Part shown: piece by piece, positions 8,588 to 32,421 of the stretch
Layout of the letters: every line of letters begins with the position of its first letter
How positions within the stretch are numbered: the first letter of the stretch is position 1
IMG/VR virus record: IMGVR_UViG_3300049044_000094
Reading direction: 5' to 3' (one strand)
Length of the DNA stretch: 64,000 nucleotides
From: a virus
Taxonomy: Duplodnaviria; Heunggongvirae; Uroviricota; Caudoviricetes
Position numbers and translations under genes: made by a program
Notes under the pieces: model-generated
The model's input: the letters and a program-made list of their open reading frames with translations, nothing else
What the model was told of the DNA's origin: nothing
Database searches by the model: none

Positions 8588-9784
8588 ATGAAGCCGACTG
8601 CACTTCTCGAGATCGCCCGCAACCGCAAGCCGGCTGAATCTCTGCTCGCGGGCCTGCGCGATGAAAACATGGCGACCTCGACCGCCGCGGGGCAGATGCT
8701 TGTCCAGAACGCCAAGGCTGCTCAGCTTTCGCTGCCGGACTATCTGCGGCTCGCGATCGACACGGACACGGGCGAGTTCAAGGGCTCGAAGCTCGATGGT
8801 TATGAGGCGGCGCTGGCCTTCCTCAATCTGCCGATCCGGGACGACTTCCAGCACGGCGTGCTCCTCCAGGCGGCGGCGGAGACGTTCCAGACGTACCCCG
8901 GCACCCGGGCTCTGTTCCCGCCTGTGATCGACGACATTCTGCAGTGGAAGTACCGCCAGCAGGGGCTCGAGCAGGTGTCCTCGATCGTGGGCCAGAGCCG
9001 GACGATCAACGGCATCGAGCTGGTGACCACGGTCGTCGACGACAAGGACGCTGATTACCAGCAGACCGGCGTGATCGCGGAAGGGTCGAACATTCCGGTT
9101 CGCTCGCTCCGAACGACCGAGAAGAGCGTGAAGTTCTACAAGTTCGGCGGTGGCATCCAGTTCACCTACGAATTCGAGCGTCGCGCCAGCCTCGATCTCG
9201 TCACTCCCTACGCGGCGCGCATGCAGCGCGAAGTCGAGATCGGCAAGGTGGCGATGGCGACCGCGCTGCTCATCAACGGCGACGGTGTGAACGCTGCGGC
9301 GCCTGTGGTTACCGCAACCACCCTGGCTGGTCAGTTCCCGGCACCTCCGACGATCGTCGCTGGCCGGATGAACTGGGAGATCTTCCTGCGCTGGCTGGTG
9401 AACCGGGCGAAGGCCGGTGTGCCCGTCGACACGGTGGTCGGCAACTACGACCTCTATTTCGAGTGGATCCGGATGTTCGCCACCCCGACGGCGAACCAGG
9501 GTCCGACGCAGATGGAGATCCTCGCCAAGGCCGGCGTGCCGACCGCGGTCGAGAACCCCAACTTCAACCTGAACGTCAGGTTTGCGCTCTCCTCGACCGC
9601 GCCCGCCTCCAAGCTGATCGGCTTCATCAAGGCCGAGACTGTGGAAGAGCTGGTCGAGAACGGCTCTGACATTGAAGAGTCGGTGCGTTCGGTCACGAAC
9701 CAGACGGTCAAGTATGTGAAGACCGAAAACAAGGGGTATCGCCTGCCCTTCGGCGACACCCGCGAGATCCTGCATCTCGCCTGA
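8588..9784 (+). CDS. major capsid protein (HK97 fold)
   Basis: 398 aa after protease/scaffold, followed by strong intrinsic terminator; AGGAG-type RBS. Confidence 0.7.
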   Translation: MKPTALLEIARNRKPAESLLAGLRDENMATSTAAGQMLVQNAKAAQLSLPDYLRLAIDTDTGEFKGSKLDGYEAALAFLNLPIRDDFQHGVLLQAAAETFQTYPGTRALFPPVIDDILQWKYRQQGLEQVSSIVGQSRTINGIELVTTVVDDKDADYQQTGVIAEGSNIPVRSLRTTEKSVKFYKFGGGIQFTYEFERRASLDLVTPYAARMQREVEIGKVAMATALLINGDGVNAAAPVVTATTLAGQFPAPPTIVAGRMNWEIFLRWLVNRAKAGVPVDTVVGNYDLYFEWIRMFATPTANQGPTQMEILAKAGVPTAVENPNFNLNVRFALSSTAPASKLIGFIKAETVEELVENGSDIEESVRSVTNQTVKYVKTENKGYRLPFGDTREILHLA

Positions 9785-9841: not shown

Positions 9842-10119
<278 letters not shown>

Positions 10120-10120
<1 letters not shown>

Positions 10121-10815
10121 TGCGGTCGGGTCAGCCTCTGACCCACCTTATCTCGTTCGCGACGGGGTTTCCTGATGCGGCCGTGTCCTGGCAGGTCCAC
10201 GACACGGCCGGCAACCTGGTCACCAGCGGCTCGTTCACGCCGGCATCCGGTGCCGTCTCCGCCATCATCACCGTACCCGGCTCGGCCAACACGCTCGGCA
10301 GCGGGGTGGTCTACGGCACCCGAGATCTGAGCTGGAGCTACACCGCCGGCAGCCTGGCCCAGGCTGGCGAGCTGCGTTATTCGATTGAGGCACGTCTGCC
10401 ATTCGGCATCCAGCGAGATGGCGTTCGCACGAAGCTCGGCGTTGAGGCGCACGAGCTGCCCGATGATCAGATTGGCATGGTCAGGGCGTACCTAGCGTTT
10501 CAGGAGCGAGTTAGCTCGGACCTGCTTGACACCTTCGCCGACGCCTCGGCCTACGAGCAACTCGTCATCGCTGACGGCATTGAAGCCGCGGCCGCGCTCG
10601 CCCTGATCCCGACGATGCAGGTTCGCCTCGCCTCGAAGGAGGCCAACGGTACCAACCAGTACCAGCGTGCCGACATCGACTGGGCTGCGGTCCAGGGTTT
10701 CCTCCAAGGCCTGATTGACGACGCGGTCGGCTTGGTGAACCCAGCGCTCGGCGCGGATGTCTCGATCGGAAACATTTTGCTGCTGACGACGCCGGACGAC
10801 CCCTTTACCGGGTGA
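10120..10815 (+). CDS. head-tail connector (gp6-like)
   Basis: C-terminal helical region and position after capsid resemble Phage_connect_1-type adaptors. Confidence 0.4.
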
Positions 10816-10839
10816 TCGCAGCGGGTTAGGGCAGGGGGT

Positions 10840-11178
10840 ATGAGTAGACCTGCTCCGCCATCTGAAACCTCCGTCCTCATCACCGGTTGGAAGATTACCG
10901 GAGGTCTGTTGGTCCTGATTATGATCAGCGGCTTGATTTTCGCAGACGACCCCAAGCCACTCACCGCGGTACAGCGCCTTACAGATCTCGAGCGTAGAAT
11001 ATTGGTGTCGGTCAAAACTGACCGCAAGTTCAAGACGGATGAAGAGGCCGCGCAGTATCTGATCGATCTAAGACCCTCTGATGCTGATCGACGACGTTGG
11101 GCACGTGAACGAGAACAGCGCGACGCAGAAATTGCCGCGCTTGCTCGAGCTGGTTGCGAGATGTCAGGTCGCTGCTAG
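10840..11178 (+). CDS. membrane protein (moron inside structural module)
   Basis: N-terminal TM helix VLITGWKITGGLLVLIMISGLIF then charged soluble domain; not a virion-type sequence. Confidence 0.4.
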   Translation: MSRPAPPSETSVLITGWKITGGLLVLIMISGLIFADDPKPLTAVQRLTDLERRILVSVKTDRKFKTDEEAAQYLIDLRPSDADRRRWAREREQRDAEIAALARAGCEMSGRC

Positions 11179-11609
11179 GACTGCCCCGTCCGCAGCAGTT
11201 CGATAGAGATCGCCCGGTAGTTCCGGATTTCGCTCTGCGCCATCGGTGCCATATCCCACGCGCTCGTCACCATTTCAGAGATCTCCTGCCCGGTGACCGG
11301 GTCGAGGAGCTTGATCTTCTGTCCCTCGCCAGTGTGGGCATGGATGATGTCGATAATCTCCATCTCGCGGAGAAGGTGGGCGTCCTGAAAGCTCGATAGC
11401 GCGATCGAATAGCGGACCACCCAGAGGCCTTGATTTTCGCTGAAGGCGAAGCCGTCGACGCCGATCAACGTCTCTTTGGGAAGTTTATCCTCATCCTGCC
11501 GATTTTCCCACGACCAATATTGCAGCGCCTGATGGCCGGTGGTTGCCTTGATCTCCTCGACAATGTCGTTGGTCGAGCGGACGAGAGACTTATAGATCGA
11601 GCTGATCAT
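11175..11609 (-). CDS. hypothetical protein, reverse-strand moron
   Basis: 145 aa from M at 11609; stop codon overlaps stop of 10840-11178 on opposite strand (CTAG). Confidence 0.4.
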   Translation of the reverse strand: MISSIYKSLVRSTNDIVEEIKATTGHQALQYWSWENRQDEDKLPKETLIGVDGFAFSENQGLWVVRYSIALSSFQDAHLLREMEIIDIIHAHTGEGQKIKLLDPVTGQEISEMVTSAWDMAPMAQSEIRNYRAISIELLRTGQS

Positions 11610-11628
11610 CACCCACCGGTGGGGCTTC

Positions 11629-12504
11629 GTGAGCGACAATCCAACCCTTCGTTTTCGGTTCACCTTCAACCGCCGCACCGGCGGCCGGCCGGAGATACAG
11701 AAGAACATTCGCGCGACCGGCCTCAGCTTTGCCCACACGATCGTCGAGGACGTCGGCGAGGTCGCAGCGAGCGAGACCTATAATGAGCTGAAGGGACGCA
11801 TGCGTCAGCAGATTCAGAGGGTCGTGCATCGGGAAATCGAGCACATCGCCAAGCTCTACTACCGCTTCATCATCGGCATCGAGCGCGCCCGATTCCAGGG
11901 CTCGCTCTCCACACTCGCCAATACTGGGGAGTTTGACACCGAAGGCAATCCCGTCCGATCGAGAATACCACTTGGCTCGATGCTCGAGCCTTGGGCCGCC
12001 CGCAGCAGGAAGTATCTGCGTCGGAAGCAGCGCGAATATGGTCACAAACGCTGGTTCGAGCGCAGCAAGGCTCTCGGCGACGAGATGAAGAACGACGCCT
12101 CCTGGTACAGCTTCTTCGGCCCACTACGAATCCGGCTCGTCCGTGAGAAGGATAAGGTGCTGCGCCGTGACGGCAGTGGCCATTTCGCGGTCGGTCGAAT
12201 CGAGGTCCGTGCCTTCGGCAATCTGACACCCTCGATGCTGCCCGCCCTATCCACCGGCAACCCGCGTGACATTGAGGCCGGCGACGGTCGCAGCAATGGG
12301 CTCATCAATCTGGTGCATCGGAAGAACCCGAAGATCGGGCACCACCTGGCCGGAGGCCGCTCGCGCAACGTGCCTTATCGCCCCACGGTGGAGCCCTTCC
12401 TTTCGTTCGTTCTCACGAGGTCGGTGCCAACGGCTGTGTTCAGCCAGCTTCGCCGCGCAACGGATGGTGTCGGATCGGCAGGTCGTACGCGCCGGCGCAC
12501 CTGA
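11629..12504 (+). CDS. hypothetical basic (Arg/Lys-rich) protein upstream of tape measure
   Basis: 291-aa ORF with GC3-rich coding codon usage; not similar to major tail or G/GT chaperones. Confidence 0.4.
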   Translation: MSDNPTLRFRFTFNRRTGGRPEIQKNIRATGLSFAHTIVEDVGEVAASETYNELKGRMRQQIQRVVHREIEHIAKLYYRFIIGIERARFQGSLSTLANTGEFDTEGNPVRSRIPLGSMLEPWAARSRKYLRRKQREYGHKRWFERSKALGDEMKNDASWYSFFGPLRIRLVREKDKVLRRDGSGHFAVGRIEVRAFGNLTPSMLPALSTGNPRDIEAGDGRSNGLINLVHRKNPKIGHHLAGGRSRNVPYRPTVEPFLSFVLTRSVPTAVFSQLRRATDGVGSAGRTRRRT

Positions 12505-12564
12505 AAAGTGGTGCAGCGCCTTTTCTATTGATGTCGGAGTCCTCGACGATCTTTACACTCGTCG

Positions 12565-15500
12565 ATGGCGAACGAACCCGGCACCGTAGAAGGCAATGTC
12601 GATCTCGAAGTCGATGGCTCCGGCATCGTCAAAGCTATTGCTGCGATCGAAACCAAGATCGCGAAGATCCAGGGTGCAATCACCAAGATCGTTAATGACT
12701 CCACGCTCGGTGCCGCGGAGTTCGACAAAAAGCTGAGTGGTACCGTCGCTGGCCTTCAGCAGGCATTGGGTCAGGTTAACACACTCCAGAAAAAGCTTGA
12801 GGCGGACGCTCGCAAGCCGATCACCCAGGCCAATCAGAACGCCGGCCTCGCCCGGGCGACCAGCCAAGCGGCTACCTACGCGAAGACGTTGGACAACGCG
12901 ACCACCTCGGCGGACGCGCTTCAGGCCAAGCTCAATGATATCAATAAGGCAATCGCCCGCGGAGGCGCAGACGGCATCCTTCCGAAGCGGGCCATCGAGA
13001 ACCAGAAGAAGAACACGGAAAGGGCGATCGCCGATCTTCGCCGCCTGGACGGCGAGCTGGAGCGGCTCGAGGCGAAGGCCCGCCGGTCGAAGGGCATCGA
13101 CGTTTCCTTCGACAAAGCTCAGGTCCAGCAGGCCCGCAAGTCGTTGCTCGAAGCGACGCTCAATCCGCGCCGCAGCAATTTCCAGAACGAGATCAACGCC
13201 CTTTCGGATGCTCAGGCGGGCCTTGCCAAAGCCATCGGTGATTTCCGCAACAAGGGCGCCGAGACTCTCCGTTCGTATCGACAGAACGCCAGGGAGGGGG
13301 CCGATGAGGCTCGTAAGCAGGCTCAGGTCGAATTGGCCTATCGCGCCCGCGAGCTGTCTGATGTCCGGCAGGTTCAGGCGCAGAAGCGTCTAGCCGCTGA
13401 CGAGGACAAGGCTTACCGCTCCAGCCAGTTGGCGGCGCGACGTGAACTGACCGAGGCCGAGAAGATCGGCGCCGCCCAGGTTGCTGCCCTGAACCGCAAG
13501 CAGTTCGAGGATGATGCCCGTGCTGACAAGGAGCGCGAGCTTCGCCGTAAGGACGCGCTGAAGGATCATCAGACCTCCCTGAAGACGAGGAAGGATGCAG
13601 CCGTCGCAGAGGTTGCCGCGTTGCGTGCCTCCGGCAACGCCGAGGCCCTCGAGCAGGCCCGCATCCGCAACGCCGGCCTCATCGCGGCTGCCCGTGATCG
13701 GTTGAAGACATCTACCGGTGAAGAAGCTCGCAAGATCCACGAGATCCTCGACATCGAAAAGGCCCGCGGCCAAGCGCTTCGCCAGGATCTGGCGGCCGAG
13801 GAACGACGAGCGGCCGCCATTGAACGGCAGGAAAAGGCACAACGCAATCTCGTCGCACGCCTTGACCAGCGTTTTCGCAAGGACGGTCTGCGCGACGAGA
13901 TCGCTGCCGAGAAGGCGGCGAATAACCTCACCAATGCTCGCGTGGAAGCAAGCCGACGTCTGCTCGACGCCCGGCAGCGCTACAAACTGGCCTCTGCGGA
14001 AGAGAAGCAGGAACTTCTTCGCACGATCGAACTGGAGCGGGCTCGTCTCCGATTGATCGATCAAGAGGTGGCCGCGGCCAAGCGCTTGGCCGAGGCGGAA
14101 AGCCGGGGGGCAGGGCGGGACAAGGGCAGCCCGATCAAGAATATTCTGACCCCCAGCTATGCTGGCGCCGCCTTCGCTCGCACCGCTGTGTATGGTGCCG
14201 CCGCGGGCGTCGCATATGGCGCCTTCAACGCCGTGCAGGAAGGGTTGCAGTTCGTCGTTCAGTTCGAGGACGAGCTGAAGAACCTCCAGGCGATCTCCGG
14301 CGCGACAGAAACGCAACTCGCATCTTTGTCAGACACAATCGTCGACGTTGCTTCGCAATCAAAATTTTCAACCCTTGAGATCACCAAAGCAGCTACAACG
14401 CTTGCTCAAGCTGGCTTCTCTACAAGTGACATGGAGAAGTCTCTTGCTGCGGTAACTGGATTGGCCGCAGCGTCTGGTTCCAGCCCTGCCGAAGCCGTGG
14501 ATGTGCTAACCAGTTCAATTTCAGCATTCAACCTCCAGACGAGCGAGGCTTCTCGCGTCTCTGACGTTCTCGTCGCCGCGTTGAACCGTTCCAAGTTGAC
14601 CATTGAGCAGGTTCGGCTTGCAATACAGTATGTTGGAGCTACCGCCTACGAGCAAAACATCTCGCTTGAGCAACTCGTTGCAACCGCTGGTGCCTTAGCT
14701 AATGCTGGTGTTCGTAGTGGTTCAACAATTGGCACCGGCCTAAGGCAACTGCTTGTCGATTTACAGAATCCAAGCGAGAAGCTGCTCGAACAGTTCAATC
14801 GGCTCAACATCAGCTTGGCTGATGTCGACGTCAAGACCCGCGGTTTCCCGGCCGTTTTACAGACGCTCACCGATAAAGGATTTGGTGCCGCTCAAGCTTA
14901 TGGGGCGCTCGAAACCCGGGCGGCTGCAGCGTATCTGGTCCTTCGCAACCAACAGGATACGTTAGGCGACCTTTTGGTCGCCGTTGCGAGACAAGGGGCT
15001 GCCGCAGAAGCGAACGCCAAGGCAATGGATTCGCTGTCTGCACAATGGACTCGGTTCACCAACATCCTAAGCACTTCCGCCTCTGGAGCGTTGCAGGATA
15101 CGGTCGATTTCCTGAAAAGCGTGCTCACCATTGCCGGTGATGGTATTCAGAAAATAAAGGATCTCCGCGAGGAAGCGTCCAAGTCTGGAGTCGCAGAACA
15201 AGTCCAACAATACAGCCTCCCTGGGCCTCTCGACGCGCTTTCCGCCCTAAACAAAGCGCTACTCACGGTTGCCGATAGTGGTGTCATTGCGGGCCGCGAA
15301 CTGGGGCTGTTGGATCAGAATACACGTGGTTGGGGAGAGAGGTGGATCGCGTATAGCGATAGTGTTTCGGGTTCATCTGCGAACCTTGACGATCTGTCGA
15401 CGGCCACTAAAGACGCAACTGAACAGTTGGACGCTCAACAGCAAACGGTTTCGTCACTCGACCAAGAAATAGCCCGGCTTTTACTTCAGCAAAACTCAAT

Positions 15501-17769
15501 CGCCAATAATCAGCGCCTTGTTCAGGCTGAGACGATAACTCTCACTTCGCGCTTTGAGGGCTTGGCCGTTCAGCTAGGAACTACTGAGAACAAGTTCTAT
15601 GACTTAGTCAACGCACTTCGAGCTTACAGAAAGGAGCAGCGTGAAGCCCTAGGAACTGCTCTTCAAGGACAGATCAACGCTGTAACACTTGAGCGCGACA
15701 GCCTTAACCGGCAAGGTGGCCAGCAAATCCGTGCCATTCGTACGAGCAATGAATATGGGCTGCTTAAGCCCGCTGAGCGTGCGGCACTTAATAATCCCAC
15801 ACGGGACGCGAATGCAGCAATCCTGACCGATGCTGCCAATCGACTGATCAAATCTAATCCGACGATCGCGCGCCAGCTTCTCGGTCTGTCCACCACGGCT
15901 GGACGATTTGTCGAGCTGGGGGTTCAGCAGAGAGGCGCTCAAGAAGCGCTGAGCTTCAACCGTGCAGCGACTTCAAATTACGGTCAGCAAGCCAGCAACT
16001 TTTTTGAGGGTGTCCAGGCCAGGATCGGACAGATCACCCCTCAGGCGACTGGTAAGGAACCTGGTGAACGGAAGGCGCTGTTCAATGCTCCGATCGCGGA
16101 TCTTGATCGGTTCGATCGTGAGCTTGAGAGGAAGCTCAACGCTGGTGGGCTCCGTGAAGGTGATCGAGAATTCATTGAGGATCTCCGCCAACAGGTCGCT
16201 TCTGCCAAAGCTGGTGTACAGGCGCTCGTCGATCCGACTTCGGCTGAGCAGAAGGCCAGTGACCGTGCGGCCAACAAGGCTGCCGGCGCCGCCAGGCGTG
16301 CGCAGAACAAGGCGCTCAGCAACGATCAGTTCCTTGAGCGTTCACAACTCAAGACGGCCGAACTCGATATCAAGGACGCGCTCGAGGATGTTGCGCAGGC
16401 GTCGGCCCTTGCAATTTACGACGAGGGTCGTGAGGCCGCGATGGCGGCACTTGATCGTTGGGTTGACGAACGTAACCAACTGGCCGACGCCGAGATTGCG
16501 AAGCGAGGCCTTGGAGGGGAACAGGCAGAACTCTATCGCCGGGAGGTCGCTGAAGAGATCCGCGCTAAGACCGATCAGGTTGTGCGTGCCCTCAACGATG
16601 GGTTCCGTAAATATATCGATGCTCAGGTAGACCAGATCAATCGCGAATTTGATCAGGCACTCCAGCCCACTCAGAGAGCACTCGGTATTGCAGAGGGACT
16701 TCGCAGCGGCCTGGATCGAGAATCTCTCAATGGTAAGGTGCCGGATTACGTACGGCAACTAGCGGACCGACGGGCGGGTTTGGCTCGGGATGAGGCTGAT
16801 CGCGCCGCTATCCCGGCCAATGAGGCCCGCATCGCCCGACTGCAGCAGCTCGCCAATGACACCAGGGCGCGTATCGAGGTTGCAAAGGGTGAGGGGGCAT
16901 CGACTGCTGAAGTCGCCACTTTGAATATCGAAGTCGAGAAGCTCACGCAGCAGATCGACGAGTTGTCAGTCGCCAATGACAATCTCAAGGCTAGCTTCCA
17001 TTCCGAGACGCTTATACCGCCAACCCTCGGCGCCTCCCTCCGTTCTGCTATCGATGCGTATGCTCAGGCGAATGGCGTCAACAACACCTTCGCCGAAAAC
17101 CTTAAGAACAACCTGGGTGGCGCGGTCGCGGCGGTTGGGGAGGGGTTCCGTGGCTTTTTCTCCAGCATTATCAGCGGCTCACAGTCCGCCGGTGGGGCGT
17201 TCATGGGTTTTGTCAAGAGCGTGATCCGCGCTCTTGAAGAGCTGCTGGCTCAGCAGCTCGCGCTGATGCTCCTCAAGCAAATCTTCAGCATGTTCGGCAG
17301 CTCTTTTGGCGGATCCACCTCGACCAGCCTTTCGGCGGGGACCGCCGGCGGCGGCTCGATCGGTGGTGCATCCGGCGCCAGTTTCATGCCAACCACTCTC
17401 CGATATCGAGGTGGCCCCATCACCGGTTACGACACCGGTGGTCTCGTCCGCAACGGGGTGCCTAATCGTGACAGCGTGAATGCGAAGCTGGCGAAGGGCG
17501 AGTTCGTGTTGCGGAAGAGTGCCGTGGATTCTCTCGGTGCCGAGTTCGTGAGCGACCTCAATCGCCGTGGTAAAATGGCGATCGAGGGCCTGAAGAAGAT
17601 GCCCACCGTGGTTCAGCAGATGCCTAAGCAAGAAATGGCTGTCTACGTCGTGGCCCCTGAGCAGAGGCCATCGCTTACGCCGAACGACGTGCTCGTCACG
17701 ATCCAGGAGGACATCCTCAAGGACGGCACGACCAAGAAACTGATCAAACACGTAAGCCAAGGAGGATAG
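12565..17769 (+). CDS. tail tape measure protein
   Basis: 1734 aa; N-terminal 500 aa coiled coil; central TP901-family TMP core; Gly-rich C-terminus. Confidence 0.8.
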   Translation: MANEPGTVEGNVDLEVDGSGIVKAIAAIETKIAKIQGAITKIVNDSTLGAAEFDKKLSGTVAGLQQALGQVNTLQKKLEADARKPITQANQNAGLARATSQAATYAKTLDNATTSADALQAKLNDINKAIARGGADGILPKRAIENQKKNTERAIADLRRLDGELERLEAKARRSKGIDVSFDKAQVQQARKSLLEATLNPRRSNFQNEINALSDAQAGLAKAIGDFRNKGAETLRSYRQNAREGADEARKQAQVELAYRARELSDVRQVQAQKRLAADEDKAYRSSQLAARRELTEAEKIGAAQVAALNRKQFEDDARADKERELRRKDALKDHQTSLKTRKDAAVAEVAALRASGNAEALEQARIRNAGLIAAARDRLKTSTGEEARKIHEILDIEKARGQALRQDLAAEERRAAAIERQEKAQRNLVARLDQRFRKDGLRDEIAAEKAANNLTNARVEASRRLLDARQRYKLASAEEKQELLRTIELERARLRLIDQEVAAAKRLAEAESRGAGRDKGSPIKNILTPSYAGAAFARTAVYGAAAGVAYGAFNAVQEGLQFVVQFEDELKNLQAISGATETQLASLSDTIVDVASQSKFSTLEITKAATTLAQAGFSTSDMEKSLAAVTGLAAASGSSPAEAVDVLTSSISAFNLQTSEASRVSDVLVAALNRSKLTIEQVRLAIQYVGATAYEQNISLEQLVATAGALANAGVRSGSTIGTGLRQLLVDLQNPSEKLLEQFNRLNISLADVDVKTRGFPAVLQTLTDKGFGAAQAYGALETRAAAAYLVLRNQQDTLGDLLVAVARQGAAAEANAKAMDSLSAQWTRFTNILSTSASGALQDTVDFLKSVLTIAGDGIQKIKDLREEASKSGVAEQVQQYSLPGPLDALSALNKALLTVADSGVIAGRELGLLDQNTRGWGERWIAYSDSVSGSSANLDDLSTATKDATEQLDAQQQTVSSLDQEIARLLLQQNSIANNQRLVQAETITLTSRFEGLAVQLGTTENKFYDLVNALRAYRKEQREALGTALQGQINAVTLERDSLNRQGGQQIRAIRTSNEYGLLKPAERAALNNPTRDANAAILTDAANRLIKSNPTIARQLLGLSTTAGRFVELGVQQRGAQEALSFNRAATSNYGQQASNFFEGVQARIGQITPQATGKEPGERKALFNAPIADLDRFDRELERKLNAGGLREGDREFIEDLRQQVASAKAGVQALVDPTSAEQKASDRAANKAAGAARRAQNKALSNDQFLERSQLKTAELDIKDALEDVAQASALAIYDEGREAAMAALDRWVDERNQLADAEIAKRGLGGEQAELYRREVAEEIRAKTDQVVRALNDGFRKYIDAQVDQINREFDQALQPTQRALGIAEGLRSGLDRESLNGKVPDYVRQLADRRAGLARDEADRAAIPANEARIARLQQLANDTRARIEVAKGEGASTAEVATLNIEVEKLTQQIDELSVANDNLKASFHSETLIPPTLGASLRSAIDAYAQANGVNNTFAENLKNNLGGAVAAVGEGFRGFFSSIISGSQSAGGAFMGFVKSVIRALEELLAQQLALMLLKQIFSMFGSSFGGSTSTSLSAGTAGGGSIGGASGASFMPTTLRYRGGPITGYDTGGLVRNGVPNRDSVNAKLAKGEFVLRKSAVDSLGAEFVSDLNRRGKMAIEGLKKMPTVVQQMPKQEMAVYVVAPEQRPSLTPNDVLVTIQEDILKDGTTKKLIKHVSQGG

Positions 17770-17770
17770 G

Positions 17771-18172
17771 GTGTCCGGCACGTTCGACTTCTGCCCGAAC
17801 AGTCTTGTGCCGGAGCTGATGCCACCAGATCCGGTTAAGGGCATCAGCATGAATGGTTGGACGTTCACGGCCAAGCCCACCATCCCGTACCAGCGCAAGT
17901 GGAAGGTCACCCTTCACGGCATGAAGTGGTTCCTGCAGTCGAACGGCTTATTCGACACTACGACGCAGCCGATGATCAATGCGCGGCGCCTCGAGCTGTT
18001 CTATCAGTCCAACGGGGTTTGGGACAATTTTTCGTGGACGCATCCGCACCTTGGTGCGCTCACCTGTCGATTTGATGCCGCGGTTGCGGTGCCGGCTGGT
18101 ATTCCAAATTCGGGTGGACTGATCGAAGCGTTCGAGATCACGCTCGTTGAGCATAATCCGGGATATTCATGA
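17771..18172 (+). CDS. minor tail protein M-like (distal tail)
   Basis: FSWTHPHLGALTCRFD..IEAFEITLVE aligns with lambda gpM FLWTPPYEWRQIKVTC..VEFSAEFEQV. Confidence 0.5.
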   Translation: MSGTFDFCPNSLVPELMPPDPVKGISMNGWTFTAKPTIPYQRKWKVTLHGMKWFLQSNGLFDTTTQPMINARRLELFYQSNGVWDNFSWTHPHLGALTCRFDAAVAVPAGIPNSGGLIEAFEITLVEHNPGYS

Positions 18173-18723
18173 TGGTCAGTCTGAGCAAAGTCGGTCGCCG
18201 TTTCGAGGTGCCCCTCACCGTCATCGAGGGTGGATCGGGGACCATTCAGGGCATTATCTCCGAGACCGACCAGCAGCAAATCCCCAGCTACATCTTCGTG
18301 CAGCAGCGGCATGTTCTGCGGGTACCGGCGCCGACTGCTCTGCAGTTCGGCATGGTCGTCCGTACCCCTGCCGGCCAGGTCTATATCCTCGGCGACAACG
18401 GGCCATCCGAAGCCGCTGAAGGCACCGTCTGGCAATCGTTCCGGCTCTTCGAACCCAGCGGCCAGTATCGGTGGGAGCGGCGGATCAAGGTCGTGGATCC
18501 CGTCACTCGGCTGGAACGTGATGATGGCTTGCAGGATATGGGCACCGTCTGGGCGGCCATGGAGCCGCTGGATCGCGAAGCCTTCGACCGGAAGATCCGC
18601 GCTTCGTTCGAGCAGAGCCGGTTCATCACCGGTGCTGCCGTTCTCTCAGATGACCTGCTCGACGGCCGGCCGGTGACCAAGAGCGATGTGCTGCTTGGCC
18701 TCCGGATCGGCGTCATTACCTAG
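18169..18723 (+). CDS. hypothetical tail protein
   Basis: 184-aa ORF overlapping previous stop (ATGA). Confidence 0.4.
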   Translation: MMVSLSKVGRRFEVPLTVIEGGSGTIQGIISETDQQQIPSYIFVQQRHVLRVPAPTALQFGMVVRTPAGQVYILGDNGPSEAAEGTVWQSFRLFEPSGQYRWERRIKVVDPVTRLERDDGLQDMGTVWAAMEPLDREAFDRKIRASFEQSRFITGAAVLSDDLLDGRPVTKSDVLLGLRIGVIT

Positions 18724-19393
18724 AAGCTCAGAACGCTGTTGATCTTAGCCACAGCCGCCTCGAGGTTGGCCGCCCCTGGCGTGATCGTATCTTTCGATGG
18801 CGGCGCACTAGGACCGGTGTTGTCAGTCTTGCCACCCAGCGCTGCGTTGATGATCTGAACCAAGCTGTTGTGTTGGGTGAGCTGGACCGCGGCCAGCTCC
18901 CCATATTTCAATCGCACCCGCTGGCTCAGTTCATAGAAGCTATACACCCAGTACAGCTTCTCGGCTTCATCTTCGCAAACATTGAATGCCCAGCAGATGG
19001 CGTCGTTCAGGCTGAGGCCTGAGAACCACTCGTCGAGAGCGCCAATTGCGGAAGCGCCTCTTTGAACTGGTTGCCCAGGCGAGCGAGTTCGCTCGCCTGC
19101 TGCTGAAAAAAATACAGCAGGTGCTCCGTGATCCATTTGAGCAGGTCCGACACTTCGTTCGGACCAATGTCATCCAGCTCATCGAAGTCGATCAAGTCCT
19201 CGATCTTCTCGACGGACTTCTTAACCGGCGTGAGTGCTCGACGAACTAGGTAATCCCGGGCGTAGGGATCGGTCAGCACCGTTGTGATGGCATTTTCAAC
19301 ATCGGGTACCATGCGCTGAAGATCGTTGAACAAGCCGTAGCTCATCTTGATCTCGCGGTCGCCGATCGTGATGGTGGAGTTGGGGCGTTCCAT
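18720..19393 (-). CDS. RHH-coupled protein split into two overlapping frames (128-aa ORF 19007-19393 and 138-aa ORF 18720-19136); -1 shift at T7 tract would fuse a ~245-aa product
   Basis: both frames protein-like; A7 run at 19106-19112 (T7 on coding strand) lies in the 130-nt overlap; ATG 19393 overlaps RHH stop (TAATG). Confidence 0.4.
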
Positions 19394-19590
19394 TATTCTT
19401 CGGTCTCCACGACGGCCTTGATCAGAAGCAGGCGAAGCGCCTGGTCGAGCGAGACATGCTTGCCCATCCCGAGGCGAAGAAGCTGGTTGACCTTGGCATT
19501 GAGGTTTTGGCCGTCGGCCTGGGCCAGTTCGGCAAGCTCGGTGTACATCTCGCGAGGTACCCGAACGGTGAAGCTGCGGTCTTTTGACAC
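19393..19590 (-). CDS. ribbon-helix-helix (CopG/Arc-like) DNA-binding protein
   Basis: GTG 19590 with GGAG RBS; RSFTVRVPREMYTELAELAQADGQNLNAKVNQLLRLGM is a canonical RHH strand-helix-helix. Confidence 0.55.
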   Translation of the reverse strand: MSKDRSFTVRVPREMYTELAELAQADGQNLNAKVNQLLRLGMGKHVSLDQALRLLLIKAVVETEE

Positions 19591-19759
19591 GTAGTTACTC
19601 CGGCGGTTGACAGGCAACCACCTAGGACGACGACTGCAACCAGTCGATGTGCAGTTGGGACTTAGATTTGGTGAAGCGCGGTGGCCGCGCTTTACATGGT
19701 TCTTCGTGATGACGGCTTTCAGAGAGGGCGCTGAAGTTTCGTCATACAGGAGCGCCATC

Positions 19760-20605
19760 GTGGCTGACGTCCAGAAGAACGCTTTTCTCCTTTCCAGCGC
19801 CACCCTGATGGTCGCTCCGGCTTTTACGACCGATGTGTTCACCCTCAAGCCGGACCTTCACTCGGTCGGCATGGCCCGAGAGATTGCCATCAGCGTCGAC
19901 AGTTCGCTTATCGAACTGCGAAACGGCATCGCGCAGGCGCTCGTCGACGCGAAGAAGACGAACGTGTCGGCGCAGATTACCGGCACCGTCTACGAGATCA
20001 CTGCCCAGAACCTGCTTCGCGCGGCCGCGCTCGATAGCTCGCAGGCGGTGCAGGTGAAGCGTGGCGTGCTGACCGCGGCGGCCAACGCCGCGGCTGTGTC
20101 GCTCTCGATCAACAGCGACCCCGTCCCCGGTGACACCAACAGCGCCATCACGGCGACGGGCGACATCCCGTCCGGTTCGACGATCCTGATCCAACGGCCC
20201 GGCAGCGAGACGGATTATGTGTTTCCCACCCTCACCTCGGGTGCGGCCACCGGCACCGGTCCCTACACCGTTCCTATCGCTGGAGCGTACGCGATCCCGG
20301 CGGGAATGTCGTTCCCGATCGGCTCGCGCGTCTGGGTGGTCACCCCGGTGGCCGTGGCGTCCATGGACGCCGATCAGCTCTTCGGTGTCAAGATCGTCGG
20401 CACGCTGTCGAACTACGACCGACCCGTCACGGCGGTGTTTCCGAAGGTGCGTATGTCGAAGGGCTTCAACCTGTCGTTCCAGGAGAGCGAATACGGCAGC
20501 ATGCCGTGGGAGATGAGCCCGCTGCTGCTCTCGGCCGCGGAGGCGACCAACCGGCTCGCCGAGATCGGTACCCGCGCACCCGGCAAGGTGTATGTCGGCG
20601 GCTAG
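19760..20605 (+). CDS. structural protein, candidate displaced major tail protein
   Basis: GTG 19760 with AGGAG RBS 7 nt upstream; 281 aa, Ala/Thr/Val-rich beta pattern; followed by the strongest terminator in the window. Confidence 0.35.
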   Translation: MADVQKNAFLLSSATLMVAPAFTTDVFTLKPDLHSVGMAREIAISVDSSLIELRNGIAQALVDAKKTNVSAQITGTVYEITAQNLLRAAALDSSQAVQVKRGVLTAAANAAAVSLSINSDPVPGDTNSAITATGDIPSGSTILIQRPGSETDYVFPTLTSGAATGTGPYTVPIAGAYAIPAGMSFPIGSRVWVVTPVAVASMDADQLFGVKIVGTLSNYDRPVTAVFPKVRMSKGFNLSFQESEYGSMPWEMSPLLLSAAEATNRLAEIGTRAPGKVYVGG

Positions 20606-20652
20606 TATACCCTGAAGATCAGCCTCTGCACTCAAGCGGCTTCAGGTTTCAC

Positions 20653-20694
20653 GGAACCCCCGGACAGCGCAAGCTCTCCGGGGGTTCCGCTTTT
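20653..20694 (+). terminator. rho-independent terminator
   Basis: GGAACCCCCGGA-12 nt-TCCGGGGGTTCC then GCTTTT. Confidence 0.7.
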
Positions 20695-20748
20695 GTAACT
20701 CCCAACACATCATCGACCACATCTCCGCCCACGGCGTAGTTCACCCCC

Positions 20749-21246
20749 GTGACTGCAATCCCCGCCTCCCATATCAGCGACGCTCACAAGCTCAACGCTG
20801 ACGGTAGGGTCGAGCTGTTCGAGCTGACGCCTATCGGTGCATATGGGACCGTTTACTTCAAGTCTGACAACTCGGTGACGTGGCAGGGCCACGAATATCT
20901 GGGTGTTCCTCTCACCTATTCTGGAGAGGATCGCACCGCACAGGGCGCCGCCCAGCAACCGCGGTTGATCATCGGACAGGAGAACGTCAATCTCTCGATG
21001 TTCAAACCGATCGTGAATGACGGCGCACTTGATGGCTCCATCATCCATAAGCTTGAGATCCTCCTCGACGACCTGATCAACAACCGGCCAATTTACCTGC
21101 GAAGGCCGTTTCGTGTTCGTCGTGTCGAGGGTTACACCCGCAGTCAGATCTCGCTTCAGCTCGCTTCCTTCTCGGATTCCTTAAGCTTCACCATGCCCTT
21201 CCGGCAGTATTTCCCACCCGCATTCCCCGCGGTGAATATCGGATGA
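20749..21246 (+). CDS. minor tail protein L
   Basis: VELFELTPIGAYGTVYFKSDNSVTWQGHEY aligns with lambda gpL VVLWEIDLTEVGGERYFF..VTWQGRQY. Confidence 0.6.
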   Translation: MTAIPASHISDAHKLNADGRVELFELTPIGAYGTVYFKSDNSVTWQGHEYLGVPLTYSGEDRTAQGAAQQPRLIIGQENVNLSMFKPIVNDGALDGSIIHKLEILLDDLINNRPIYLRRPFRVRRVEGYTRSQISLQLASFSDSLSFTMPFRQYFPPAFPAVNIG

Positions 21247-21728
21247 TCCGCTATGATCACCTCGTCGGCATTCATTTCGAACCGGGTGTGCACGATTGCT
21301 TCTCGCTTGGTCGGCAATTCTTCGTCGATAACTTCGGCCTGGTGATCACCGACTACGCCCGCCCCACCGACTGGAGAGCCGACAACCTCGATTTGATCGG
21401 CGCCGCCTACGAGCGTGAGGGCTTCGAGAAGATCACTGATTGGCGCGAAAAGGACCTTCGCCCCGGCGATGTGTTCTGCATGGCGATCGGGGAATCCAAG
21501 CCCAACCACTTCGCCATTTATGTTGGCGACAACATGATCCTCCATCAATTGCTTGGGCGGATGTCGGCGGCAGAACCGTACCGCGATTTCTGGCGCAACT
21601 GCACATCCTATCTGCTGCGCCATCCGTCGGTCCCCGACCTGAGGCCGACTCCGCCGGAACACGAAATAGGGAGCTTGCTGCGTGCTCGATACAATCTCCA
21701 AGCTGCTGAGCCTGTTCAAGGAGACTGA
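21243..21728 (+). CDS. NlpC/P60 (C40) peptidase, gpK-like half
   Basis: Cys-His motif DVFCMAIGE..NHFAIYVG typical of NlpC/P60. Confidence 0.6.
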   Translation: MIRYDHLVGIHFEPGVHDCFSLGRQFFVDNFGLVITDYARPTDWRADNLDLIGAAYEREGFEKITDWREKDLRPGDVFCMAIGESKPNHFAIYVGDNMILHQLLGRMSAAEPYRDFWRNCTSYLLRHPSVPDLRPTPPEHEIGSLLRARYNLQAAEPVQGD

Positions 21729-22047: not shown

Positions 22048-22604
22048 AGATCTATCTCCATGGCGTGTTGAAGGAGAGGTACGGCCCGGTCTTCGAGATC
22101 AAGACTGACCGTGTTCACGATGCCATTGAAGGCCTTTCGCGGCAGCTCCCCGATTGGCCACGCGATCTTTTGATTGAGGCCGTGGGCTTCGAAACTGAGG
22201 AGAAGCTTCGTTCGCCGTCGGACGCTTGCGAGGTCCACCTGCTGCCCGCCATGTTCGGCGGCAAGGGCATCGCCAAGTTCATTGGCATCATCATCGGCGC
22301 CGCTATGGTCGTGGCGGGAATTCTGCTCCTTCCGACCAACCCTGCTCTCGGATGGTCGCTCATTGCCTCAGGCGCCACGATGATCCTTGCCGGCGTTGTC
22401 CAGCTCTTCATGAAGGCACCGACTGTCTCGAAGGCCAACGACCCACCAGCCTCCAAATTCCTTGGCGTCAACAAGAACACAACAGACATCGGCACGCCGA
22501 TCATCCTTGCCTGGGGCAGAGTGCCGATCGCGGGCCACTGGCTCAGCATTCAGGCCGACAGCAACAAGCTTGTGCTCGGCGTATTTCCGGAGACTCCGAC
22601 TTGA
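22044..22604 (+). CDS. tail assembly protein I
   Basis: N-terminal ubiquitin-like MKIYLHGVLKERYGPVFEIK..EVHLLPAMFGG then hydrophobic C-terminus, as in lambda gpI. Confidence 0.6.
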   Translation: MKIYLHGVLKERYGPVFEIKTDRVHDAIEGLSRQLPDWPRDLLIEAVGFETEEKLRSPSDACEVHLLPAMFGGKGIAKFIGIIIGAAMVVAGILLLPTNPALGWSLIASGATMILAGVVQLFMKAPTVSKANDPPASKFLGVNKNTTDIGTPIILAWGRVPIAGHWLSIQADSNKLVLGVFPETPT

Positions 22605-23833
22605 TCGATCCTCGCATACTGGATTTCGCCAACGAAGTCGAAGCTCAGCACATCAATGCCTTTCTGCGCCATGGTACTTTTACCGCGGCGGGCGACGCGA
22701 TCGAGGTGCATCGCAGCACGATCCAACGCTCGATCGAACGGGTGAAAATGCGGGCCGCCGCCCACGGCTACAGCCCCGACCACGGCCTCGAGAGTGTCGT
22801 CCCGGCACCTTTCATTGCCAAAGGACATTCGACGCTGGAGCGCGTCTCTCCGGACGGTAGTCGTGAGCAGGTCCTGCAATGGACAAAGACGAAGATCGAC
22901 GACACCTTGTGGATGGAGCACGTCAAGGAAGGCATCAATGCTTTCCTGCAGGGCGCGCCCAAGGTCTTGGCGCCACACGCTCCGCTCGACTTCGATACAG
23001 ACATCATCCCTTGGATTCAGATCGGCGACGCCCACATCGGCATGCTGGCGCATGCCGCGGAAGTCGGCGAGAACTTTGACCTGAAGATCGCCGAGACCGA
23101 GCTGTGTGGCGCCTTCAGCATCCTCATCGATGAGTTGCCGAACTGCGAGCGGCTGGTCATCAATGACCTCGGCGATTTCACCCACTACGAGAATTTCTCA
23201 GCCAAAACCGAGGCGAGCGGCCACGACCTCGATTTCGACAGCCGCTTCCCCAAGATGATCAAGGTCTACTCGCGTATCATGCGATGGCTGGTCGACAAGG
23301 CTCTGACCAAGGCTCGACATGTCGACGTCATTGTGAACCAGGGCAACCACAGTCGCACCAACGACATCTGGATGGCTGAGTTGCTGCGCGTTTGCTATGG
23401 GCACACCGGTCGAGTTCACGTTCTCAACAACGACAGCGTTTTCATCGGCTACCGGATGGGGAACACGTTCGTGATGACTCATCACAGCGACAAGTGCCGG
23501 CCCAACCGCCTCGCGCACGTCATGACCACCGACTTCCGGCAGGATTATGGAGAGACCGAATTCCATTACATCGACATCGGCCACGTCCACCACAGCATGG
23601 TGGTGAAGGAGCACCCCGGTGTCGTCGTCGAGAGCTTCAATAACCTCGCGGCGATGGACAAATATGCCTTCGACAACGGTTATCGCAGCAAGCGGTCGAT
23701 GACCACGATCCTACGCAGTCGCCGCTATGGGGAGATAGGCCGGCGGACGCTGCCGATCCAGGAGGTCCGTGAGCGGCTGAACAGAGCGATCGGGTTCGAG
23801 ATCCCGAAGGTGCAACGCGCCTACGCGGTGTAA
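22601..23833 (+). CDS. HTH domain + calcineurin-like metallophosphoesterase, inserted between tail genes I and J
   Basis: TTG 22601 with GGAGAC RBS, overlaps gpI stop (TTGA); HTH AAGDAIEVHRSTIQRSIERV; phosphoesterase motifs GDAHIG, GDFTH, GNHS, GHVHH. Confidence 0.5.
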   Translation: MIDPRILDFANEVEAQHINAFLRHGTFTAAGDAIEVHRSTIQRSIERVKMRAAAHGYSPDHGLESVVPAPFIAKGHSTLERVSPDGSREQVLQWTKTKIDDTLWMEHVKEGINAFLQGAPKVLAPHAPLDFDTDIIPWIQIGDAHIGMLAHAAEVGENFDLKIAETELCGAFSILIDELPNCERLVINDLGDFTHYENFSAKTEASGHDLDFDSRFPKMIKVYSRIMRWLVDKALTKARHVDVIVNQGNHSRTNDIWMAELLRVCYGHTGRVHVLNNDSVFIGYRMGNTFVMTHHSDKCRPNRLAHVMTTDFRQDYGETEFHYIDIGHVHHSMVVKEHPGVVVESFNNLAAMDKYAFDNGYRSKRSMTTILRSRRYGEIGRRTLPIQEVRERLNRAIGFEIPKVQRAYAV

Positions 23834-23882
23834 CTCCCAGCCCCACCAATGAGATTGCCGCCGGTTGCGATAACCGGCGGCA

Positions 23883-30397: not shown

Positions 30398-30467
30398 GTC
30401 GTTACTCCGGTTGTGGACACCGGAGGTCTACGAATCCGCTGACTCCCGCTCAAAGAAACACAGCTAA

Positions 30468-30480: not shown

Positions 30481-32421
30481 TCATGTCGTTGGCTGGGAGT
30501 TATCAAGATCAACGTGGTGATACTCACCTGGGATCATCAGTGTTTCTCCCAGCCGTTTGTGCGTGATGATGATGAGCTGGCCAATCTGTTCGCGCAGATT
30601 GGCAAGGCTTTCGATTGTTGCCTGCGATCGCTCGGCGTCCATGTCCGAGTCCAGTTCGTCGGCCAGGAACACTGGGAACACGCGGGACACCAGCACCTGG
30701 CCGAGCGCCACTCGGAGCGCCACGTTGGCCACCGTTGCGCCGGCGCCGGACAGAGTCTCTACGGCTTGCCCGTCGACGCTGATGTTCATCTCCTCATCCA
30801 CGATCACCGAGCTGAAGACACCGTTGGTCATCTGATGGATCAGCGTCGACGCCACTCGGGTAAGGGCAGGGGCCAGATACGCCTTTACCGTGGTGCGTGC
30901 TGAAACCAGCGCTTCAGCACCGTGCTTGTAGGCATCGGCCTTGCGTACCTTCTCGGTGATCTCCAGGCTGATCCGATCGAATTCGGCTCGGGCCTTGGCA
31001 TAGGCCTCGACCTGGTTCTCGTAGACGCGAGCGTTGAGCAGCGCTGCCTCCAACTCGTGCGTGTTGTCGATCACCTCGCCGAGCTGCTCAAGCGCGGCCT
31101 TGGCTTCCACTGCGGCCGCGCTTCGCTTCTCCCACCCCTCCTTAGCTACGACATAGGCAGCCCATTCAGCCCTCAGCCGCCGCTCACCGGCTAGTGTGTC
31201 GGATCGATCCTCGAGTATCGGTAGACCGGCCAGTTCGTCGATGAGCTTGAGCTTCTCGTTCACCCGGGCGAGGGCGATCCGCCCCTTTTGGATTTCCGCG
31301 TCCGTCATCGTCATCCCACCGGCGGGTTCCGGTGGAAGTGGAGAAGACCAGTTGTCGTGCCGCCGCTGCTCGGCCCGTAGCTCAGGCAGCGGAGTGGTTG
31401 GGGGCTCTGGCACCTCACCGTTCGTCAGAAAAATGTGGTCACATTTCGGACAGGTTGCCTCGACGTGGACGAGGTTCTTGACCGCACCATAGTGTGCCCA
31501 CGCCTCGATGGCCGCGATCACCTCACCATAGGGGAGGATCGGTTGCGGGCCGCGTCGCTTGACTTCAGCGTGGTACTGGTTCGCAGTTTCTGCCGCGTCA
31601 AGGTTCTCTGCGGTCCAGATTGCGTCGGGGATAGCATCGATGGCCTTGGCAAGCTGCCGTCTCTGAGCATCCAGCTCGAGCCGGCTCTTCTCATGGGCCT
31701 CGAGTGCACAGAGGTCGCCAGTCGGCTCAGCCATCAGCATCGGAGGTGGCCCAACCTCAGCGATGATGCGTTCCAAGGCATTCTTCTCTTTGAGCCGTTC
31801 GCGCACGAAGAGTAAATCGACGGCAATCTGATCGGACGGTCGGTAGCCCTCCGGTTCAACAGGCTCCGCTGGCGCTGATAGCATCGTGCTCATGGCGTCG
31901 GCTTCGCGCCGATAGCCCTTCGCCTCATCGCGACAGGCCCTCTCGACGACTTCGTTGGCAGCGAGGCCGAGCACCTGATCGATCAGTTTCTTTCGCTCGG
32001 CTGGCTTCATGCTGGTGAGCCGTTCGCTCTGTTTCTGCGTCACCGCGCAGGCGATGTCGAAGACATCGAGTCCGAAGCCGAGCAGTTCCCGTATCTTCTG
32101 GTTGACGGCATCGGCACCGACGGCGAGCACGGCATCGTTCTTGTCGAGCAGGCGCTCGGACTTGCGGTTGCGTTCGACGCGGTAGTCCTCACCACGGATC
32201 TGGAAATCCATAGTGGCGTCGAGCTTTTTGTAATCGGAAGCTGGACCCCGCAGCGCTTTCTTACCGAACAGCAGGTAGCGCGGAAGCTCGCTGGCACTGA
32301 AGCTCTTCCCAGATCCATTGCGTCCGGTGACCGCGGTGATCCCTGGTGGCGGGGTCAACTGTCCCTTCAAGCTCAGGCCGTTCGTAGGGAAGGTGACGGA
32401 GTAGGTGATGTCTTTGATCAT
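30481..32421 (-). CDS. SbcC/Rad50-like ATPase with zinc hook
   Basis: Walker A GRNGSGKS, coiled-coil middle with CPKC hook, signature/D-loop VFLADELDSDMD, H-loop ITHK; AGGAG RBS. Confidence 0.7.
   Translation of the reverse strand: MIKDITYSVTFPTNGLSLKGQLTPPPGITAVTGRNGSGKSFSASELPRYLLFGKKALRGPASDYKKLDATMDFQIRGEDYRVERNRKSERLLDKNDAVLAVGADAVNQKIRELLGFGLDVFDIACAVTQKQSERLTSMKPAERKKLIDQVLGLAANEVVERACRDEAKGYRREADAMSTMLSAPAEPVEPEGYRPSDQIAVDLLFVRERLKEKNALERIIAEVGPPPMLMAEPTGDLCALEAHEKSRLELDAQRRQLAKAIDAIPDAIWTAENLDAAETANQYHAEVKRRGPQPILPYGEVIAAIEAWAHYGAVKNLVHVEATCPKCDHIFLTNGEVPEPPTTPLPELRAEQRRHDNWSSPLPPEPAGGMTMTDAEIQKGRIALARVNEKLKLIDELAGLPILEDRSDTLAGERRLRAEWAAYVVAKEGWEKRSAAAVEAKAALEQLGEVIDNTHELEAALLNARVYENQVEAYAKARAEFDRISLEITEKVRKADAYKHGAEALVSARTTVKAYLAPALTRVASTLIHQMTNGVFSSVIVDEEMNISVDGQAVETLSGAGATVANVALRVALGQVLVSRVFPVFLADELDSDMDAERSQATIESLANLREQIGQLIIITHKRLGETLMIPGEYHHVDLDNSQPTT

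Follow-up and report, generated by a model that had tools for sequence, protein, structure and literature searches.

The subject of this study is a minus-strand gene pair in the tail module of a tailed phage (Duplodnaviria; Heunggongvirae; Uroviricota; Caudoviricetes), represented by the IMG/VR virus record IMGVR_UViG_3300049044_000094. The window, i.e., the whole stretch of DNA that was analyzed, comprises 64,000 nucleotides, and all positions given below refer to it unless another locus is named. A gene for an Arc-like ribbon-helix-helix (RHH) protein is followed by a second gene, simply named gene 2, which is open in two overlapping frames and very probably encodes the tail assembly chaperone of this phage. 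The cassette is composed of the following features:

19393..19590, minus strand: Arc-like RHH gene, the first gene of the cassette; 65 amino acids, GTG start, GGAG ribosome binding site
19007..19393, minus strand: short product of the putative tail assembly chaperone gene (G-like, frame 0); 128 amino acids
19106..19112, minus strand: slippery heptamer U_UUU_UUU, in phase, read as UAU UUU UUU
19076..19099, minus strand: candidate stimulator hairpin, 10 bp, GC-rich, CAGGCGAGCG-AACU-CGCUCGCCUG
18720..19106, minus strand: extension in the -1 frame (T-like part); 128 codons and a stop

The GTG start codon of the RHH gene at 19590 is preceded by GGAG at a distance of 7 nt, and its stop codon TAA overlaps the ATG of gene 2 in the sequence TAATG (19395-19391). 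Within gene 2, the open stretch of the -1 frame extends from position 19136 to position 18720 and shares 130 nt with the frame-0 reading frame. This overlap contains the run of seven A on the plus strand (19106-19112), which corresponds to CUG CUG UAU UUU UUU CAG in the mRNA and is the sole homopolymer of seven or more nucleotides across the 64 kb. U_UUU_UUU is also the only heptamer of gene 2 that is in phase and followed by a long -1 extension. As deduced from the sequence, conventional decoding gives 128 amino acids, while a -1 slip would give 96 + 128 = 224. The initial annotation had described the minus-strand two-gene unit, the TAATG junction, the two frames, the 130-nt overlap and the A7 tract, all of which are present in the sequence. 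Its RHH assignment, GTG 19590 and the GGAG site hold as well, with 65 instead of 66 amino acids, and so does the slip at U7 with the heptamer in phase, although the fusion amounts to 224 rather than about 245 amino acids.

Both halves of gene 2 are homologous to the tail assembly chaperones of Caulobacter phage Seuss and of the Achromobacter phages JWF and 2-1. The frame-0 protein matches PHROG 37198, "tail length tape measure protein chaperone" (2.5e-11), and in a tblastn search the annotated chaperone of Achromobacter phage 2-1. The -1 frame past the frame-0 stop (18723-19031) was used as a separate tblastn query and matches the phages Seuss, JWF, and 2-1 with E-values from 2e-9 to 4e-8, where the matched region lies after the stop of the chaperone and before the start of the tape measure gene; the match to Pseudoalteromonas phage KB12-38 is weaker. 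An AlphaFold (AF2) model of the 128-residue protein, with 21 homologues as input, reached a pLDDT of 92, and among viral folds it matches the tape-measure chaperone of Seuss best (E 5.4e-7, TM 0.72). The motif W..HL[LM]YFF is invariant across these 21 homologues.

Pfam searches with the short product (G), the -1 part (T) and the fusion returned no chaperone family, the only match being to DUF3834 below threshold, and no solved structure matched the model of the 128-residue protein. For this reason, the designation as a chaperone rests on the synteny within the Seuss family, the frameshift, and the PHROG annotation. The tape measure gene is preceded by a homologue of Seuss gp17 and by no chaperone-like gene; thus, the inverted gene 2 is the only chaperone gene of the tail module. 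No near relative of the region from 17.7 to 20.7 kb was detected by megablast against a phage collection, and a scan of viral contigs with the G protein found nothing.

The slippery site was compared among 13 lineages. Homologues at 42-57% identity together with RHH homologues led to nine further diverged loci, and the 13 lineages counted comprise diverged loci as well as four isolated phages. All 13 lineages having the motif carry U_UUU_UUY in phase. In each of them the -1 frame after the heptamer stays open for 123-135 codons, resulting in fusions of 223-239 amino acids, and the same shift is needed at the same codon, at identities down to about 25%. T6C is carried by 11 of the 13, while the window and KB12-38 have a pure T7. 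The residue before Phe-Phe is Tyr, His (loci L020 and L021) or Asp (KB12-38), yet the codon reads NAU without exception, and UUU is the first Phe codon of the heptamer in every lineage. In the structural genes of the window phage, UUU makes up 17% of the Phe codons and UAU 44% of the Tyr codons. Since the wobble U and the rare UUU are kept despite residue changes, the constraint acts on nucleotides. Judged by these alignments and a TTT use of 17%, retention of the heptamer in 13 diverged lineages is far beyond chance.

At the slip site itself, the window reads TAT TTT TTT in ...EHLLYFF..., phage 2-1 reads TAT TTT TTC in ...EHILYFF..., and the annotated site of Seuss is TAT TTT TTC in ...DHLTYFF.... 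For Seuss, two chaperone products are annotated via ribosomal slippage in the genome announcement (PMC4591317), citing Xu, Hendrix and Duda 2004. The aligned -1 peptides of the 13 lineages reveal a poorly conserved Gly/Pro-rich linker, which is the stretch overlapping the frame-0 tail, followed by a conserved domain (WF..L.F..A.CWAF ... Q/HN.LV ... GG ... N..L.F) starting at the frame-0 stop. Xylophilus phage Lumi lacks the heptamer. Its chaperone homologue (L004 8534-9303) reads ...EHLLDFSF..., and for the T-like part a gene of its own is annotated, starting at 9031 where the first chaperone gene ends. Lumi may use another recoding site or none.

From the computed homology of both halves, the conserved heptamer and the conserved -1 domain, we infer that frameshifting takes place, and we consider it very probable that gene 2 is the tail assembly chaperone gene of the phage, of the lambda G/GT type. 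The G/GT-like reading of the initial annotation is thereby borne out by the homology to the Seuss, JWF, and 2-1 chaperones as well as by the conservation of heptamer and extension.

A perfect GC-rich hairpin of 10 bp (19099-19076, -25.4 kcal/mol) lies 6 nt past the heptamer. Its z score is -4.2 for dinucleotide-preserving shuffles and -3.2 for simple shuffles of a longer stretch. The spacing of 6 nt would suit a frameshift stimulator. However, a conserved stimulating structure 3' of the heptamer, sought in 10 lineages, is not evident in most relatives, and therefore the hairpin is treated as a candidate.

The genes surrounding the cassette were assigned as follows:

11629-12504, plus strand: gp17 homologue
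12565..17769, plus strand: tape measure protein, 1734 amino acids; PHROG 37649 at 3e-104, PF10145 in the called genes
17771-18172, plus strand: gp23 homologue (gpM position)
18169..18723, plus strand: Seuss gp16 homologue, 184 amino acids, convergent with the cassette; tblastn to Seuss gp16 with E 4e-15
19760..20605, plus strand: gene of the tail tube (major tail) protein, transcribed away from the cassette; alternative ATG at 19709
20749-21246, plus strand: gpL-like gene

The tube gene product matches PDB entry 9n71_B, "Tail tube", over nearly its full length (phmmer, E 4e-13) and PHROG 28493 at 2.3e-32. Its homologue in Seuss is gp19, located ahead of the Seuss chaperone. The order in the window is thus tape measure, gp23 homologue, gp16 homologue, then T, G, and RHH on the opposite strand, tube, and gpL-like gene, and no chaperone is located between tube and tape measure genes on their own strand. 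In Seuss, 2-1, KB12-38, and Lumi, one strand carries tube (PHROG 28493), chaperone, tape measure, the gene in gpM position (PHROG 34212) and the gpL-like gene in this order. The cassette does interrupt the plus-strand tail genes, as noted in the initial annotation, but its left neighbor is the Seuss gp16 homologue and not gpM. Its placement within the tail module, on the opposite strand and downstream of the tape measure gene, was recognized as well; as it holds the only chaperone gene of the module, it is more than an interruption. The stop codons of T and of the gp16 homologue overlap as CTAG, which leaves no space for a terminator between the convergent units, and terminator prediction between the two genes yielded none.

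The tail module of the window (10100-21300) was compared with loci L013-L022 and L001-L004. The inverted layout recurs in L013 and L017 at about 50% protein identity and, with variations, in L018 and L019. In L020-L022, cassette and tube gene are again divergent, and the tape measure block is found on the far side of the gpL-K-I genes. In L014 the cassette is located directly upstream of the tape measure gene and in L016 downstream of it, in both cases on the same strand. Throughout, RHH and G/GT stay together as a unit, and in 10 of 10 lineages the stop codon of the first gene overlaps the start codon of the second; relative to the tape measure gene the unit occurs in at least four positional forms, and in 8 of 10 lineages it is divergent to the tube gene. 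Viewed from the other side, the block of tape measure, gp23 and gp16 homologues takes at least four positions with respect to the tube gene and the RHH-chaperone unit. In some lineages (L018, L019), the gp16 homologue is absent from the block or placed on the other strand.

The synteny of tube, chaperone, and tape measure genes is a heuristic and not a mechanistic requirement. A frameshifting chaperone as such is of a known kind. New is its relocation: the gene lies on the opposite strand and is coupled to the Arc-like gene, and the tail module of the clade is shuffled. This organization is seen in uncultured phages only. A literature search for opposite-strand chaperones or RHH-chaperone pairings returned nothing relevant, and Rfam matches in the region 17.5-21 kb were at chance level.

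The RHH protein matches the Pfam family Arc (PF03869) at 2.8e-5 with 24.3 bits against a cut-off of 20.4. It also has weak HicB/FitA-like Pfam matches, and some sources call its homologues 'HicB family'. Across 10 lineages, the N-terminal strand RSFT[VIL]RVP and the helix motif LN..N are the most conserved parts. Phage 2-1 carries an Arc-like gene of 65 amino acids (Pfam Arc 3.3e-5) directly ahead of its tube gene, encoded on the other strand. Unannotated open reading frames opposite the tube gene are present in Seuss (L002 7237-7629, minus strand, equivalent to about 15171-15563 of the Seuss record; Arc 6.6e-4, just below the cut-off) and in Lumi (L004 7280-7543, minus strand), the latter with an Arc-like N-terminus judged by eye alone. 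All three RHH genes stand alone, without a coupled chaperone downstream. Their location opposite the tube gene indicates an ancestral position rather than a recent moron, and, as far as sequence comparison goes, this position appears to be family-wide; in L014 and L016 the RHH gene does not adjoin the tube gene. The novelty of the window clade is the joining of the chaperone to the RHH transcription unit.

Two elements of the divergent region between cassette and tube gene are of interest here:

19654..19664, minus strand: motif TAAGTCCCAAC, candidate promoter or leader signal of the cassette
19671..19695, no strand assigned: palindrome or hairpin of 11 bp in the RHH-tube divergent intergenic region

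Most likely, the RHH protein would bind within this 169-bp region and regulate one or both of the flanking units. In an intergenic alignment searched for a conserved RHH operator, only the core TAACTCC and the ribosome binding site of the tube gene are conserved. Palindromes are present in 19591-19759, none of which is conserved across lineages. That of 11 bp at 19671-19695 is specific to the window lineage and could be an operator or a weak plus-strand terminator; it lies 6 nt from the TAAGTCC motif.

The motif is not confined to the cassette. The pattern TAA(C/G)TCCCA(A/G)C has four copies in the window against 0.06 expected, a generous comparison, as the pattern was set after seeing the matches. 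Each copy is oriented as its gene and lies 64 nt (RHH gene) or 38-42 nt (the other three genes) upstream of the start, with its first nucleotide placed as follows:

19654-19664, minus strand: beginning 74 nt before the start codon of the RHH gene
20696-20706, plus strand: beginning 53 nt before the gpL-like gene
23831-23841, plus strand: beginning 52 nt before the gpJ-like gene
30492-30502, minus strand: beginning 49 nt before the minus-strand gene at 30453

The core TAACTCC is found at the same three tail positions (RHH, gpL-like, and gpJ-like gene) in L013 (9718/8732/5620), L017 (9736/8794/6909), and L018 (9723/8735/5672), with a spacing of 51-53 nt. A scan of 18.0-20.2 kb for sigma-70 promoters detected none. 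The 11-mer may be a phage promoter or leader signal, and its sharing suggests that the cassette and the distal tail operons are expressed from one type of signal. Upstream of the gpJ-like gene, the TAA of the motif also serves as the stop codon of the gene before it. After the tube gene, a long GC-rich hairpin with a T-run (about 20653-20695) stands right before the next TAACTCC, an arrangement of terminator and then signal.

We propose that the cassette acts as an autonomous minus-strand operon, RHH followed by G/GT, which would supply this siphophage with its only tail assembly chaperone. Translation of gene 2 would normally end with the G-like protein of 128 amino acids. In a minority of ribosomes, the two tRNA-Phe would slip back by one base on U_UUU_UUU (19112-19106), possibly aided by the hairpin 6 nt downstream, and decoding would then run through the Gly/Pro-rich linker into the conserved T-like domain, giving the 224-residue fusion. 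If lambda G/GT is taken as a model, the N-terminal part common to both products should hold the tape measure protein, and the T domain should recruit the tube protein. The RHH gene would be translationally coupled to the chaperone. As chaperone proteins act in trans, the gene needs no adjacency to the tape measure gene.

On this basis, one may ask what the association with the RHH gene implies. Tentatively, we suggest that the chaperone was captured into the transcription unit of an Arc-like regulator, and that autoregulation by the RHH protein, together with convergent antisense transcription against the tape measure block, replaced co-transcription in setting dosage and timing; the tail module would then consist of shuffling units marked by TAACTCC. 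We regard this as a possibility worth stating rather than as the expected outcome. If true, the capture would be a natural demonstration that the near-universal synteny of tube, chaperone, and tape measure genes is dispensable, and it would show a dedicated repressor residing inside a module for virion assembly.

A different role of the RHH gene has to be weighed against regulation. It could be a leader reading frame that delivers ribosomes to the chaperone, or its product could be an assembly partner that does not bind DNA, so that no transcription factor for tail genes would be involved. The invariable overlap of its stop codon with the chaperone start is in accordance with such a role, as are the failure to find a conserved operator and the two loci (L014, L016) in which the RHH gene is not beside the tube gene. 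On the other hand, the residues of the N-terminal strand that read DNA are among the most conserved, the Pfam Arc match exceeds its threshold, and 2-1, Seuss, and Lumi retain a standalone RHH gene at the same divergent position with no chaperone coupled to it. We therefore consider a mere leader or assembly role doubtful and retain the RHH protein as a putative regulator.

Regarding the origin of the long product, RNA polymerase could add one U on the T7/A7 tract, and such an inserted base would lead to the same fusion frame as ribosomal frameshifting. An uninterrupted run of seven identical bases, as present in the window and in KB12-38, would permit this. Efficient transcriptional slippage in bacteria usually requires runs of about nine or more, however, and 11 of the 13 lineages have only T6C, yet all keep the X_XXY_YYZ phase. 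This phase matters for re-pairing of the tRNAs and not for slippage of the polymerase, which disfavors the transcriptional route; we rate it as improbable compared with a -1 shift of the ribosome.

The cassette could also be a pair of RHH antitoxin and toxin, or another defense or moron pair, that was inserted into the tail module and has nothing to do with tail assembly. This was among the alternatives named in the initial annotation, and both the RHH-first, overlapping two-gene layout and the weak HicB/FitA-like matches recall type II operons. But gene 2 is homologous to chaperones in canonical position and is the only one in its module, Pfam and PADLOC searches with gene 2 and the fusion found no toxin or defense model, and the RHH gene is an ancestral neighbor of the tube gene that has no downstream partner gene in relatives. 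Hence, a toxin-antitoxin pair is very improbable.

That the two frames merely reflect a homopolymer sequencing error or a decaying pseudogene, both likewise listed in the initial annotation and suggested by the proneness of homopolymers to error and by gene callers dividing the chaperone region into genes of 128 and 75 amino acids, can hardly be maintained, given that the exact 128-residue protein is encoded on 15 contigs, that eight contigs from different JGI and SRA samples and pipelines, compared as independent assemblies, show 100% identity throughout the cassette, T7 included, and that the same shift is required in 13 lineages, with the two-frame arrangement and the -1 domain maintained at about 50% amino-acid divergence.

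A conserved -1 frameshift in a relocated tail assembly chaperone gene, the reading preferred here, has consequences for the annotation of phage genomes. The order of tube, chaperone, and tape measure genes, together with the frameshift, serves as a near-universal landmark in the tails of siphophages and myophages. The clade described here keeps the frameshift yet breaks the synteny in at least four ways, and the preservation of the heptamer through residue replacements is a signature of selection at the nucleotide level. Chaperone calling based on synteny will miss such genes; all assembly pipelines concerned here gave two hypothetical proteins instead. Evidently, the chaperone functions in trans and without co-transcription with its client. 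In the RHH protein there is, moreover, a candidate for a dedicated regulator of transcription encoded within a tail morphogenesis module, and one that can be tested.

Some further features of the structural region deserve mention. At 11178-11609, a second single gene is inverted within the plus-strand structural module. Its product of 144 amino acids has weak homology over the full length to Seuss gp18 (BLASTP 2e-5, 21% identity), which, unlike the gene in the window, shares the strand of its neighbors. An opposite-strand gene for 144-152 amino acids beside a gp17-sized gene is present in all relatives covering the region, matched on size alone. Between the gpI-like and gpJ-like genes, 22601-23833 (plus strand) encodes a protein of 410 amino acids that matches PHROG 704, 'DNA repair exonuclease', at 5e-93 and looks like a protein of nuclease/phosphoesterase type in the tail tip module; a gene for 351-419 amino acids is located there in most relatives. 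Finally, the large terminase of L022 (16727-18213) has 954 amino acids versus 579 in L020 and 595 in L021 and a Pfam match to LAGLIDADG_3, which suggests the insertion of an intein or homing endonuclease.

Among known systems, the chaperones of Seuss (gp20/gp21), JWF, 2-1, and KB12-38 are closest to the cassette. Both halves are homologous to those of the window at 25-35% identity, the motif ..W..HL.YFF is shared along with the in-phase U_UUU_UUY, and the overlap (about 130-150 nt) and the products (121-151 and 223-236 amino acids) are of similar size. The difference is one of arrangement. Phages of the Seuss type show the canonical order on one strand, with a separate RHH gene encoded on the other strand ahead of the tube gene. 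In the window, by contrast, the chaperone has moved to the strand of the RHH gene, is coupled to it, and lies downstream of the tape measure gene, converging on that block.

The likeness to gpG/gpGT of lambda is one of principle. In both, a -1 frameshift near the end of a short reading frame yields a minor fusion about 1.7-1.8 times longer, and the division of labor, with G binding the tape measure protein and T the tube, is presumably the same. There is no detectable sequence or Pfam relationship between the two chaperones. The slippery heptamer of lambda is G_GGA_AAG, compared with U_UUU_UUU in the window, and whereas the slip site of lambda is at the very end of G, that of the window precedes the G stop by about 100 nt. 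The window also differs from lambda in gene position, in strand, and in having the operon led by an RHH gene.

With Arc of phage P22 and the Arc/MetJ group, the RHH protein shares the pattern of an N-terminal beta-strand and two helices, as seen from FTVRVPREM...NLNAKVNQLL in the window and FNLRWPREV...SVNSEIYQRV in P22 Arc. Unlike the latter, it has an additional C-terminal segment of about 25 amino acids, and its gene resides within a tail morphogenesis module, coupled to the chaperone gene.

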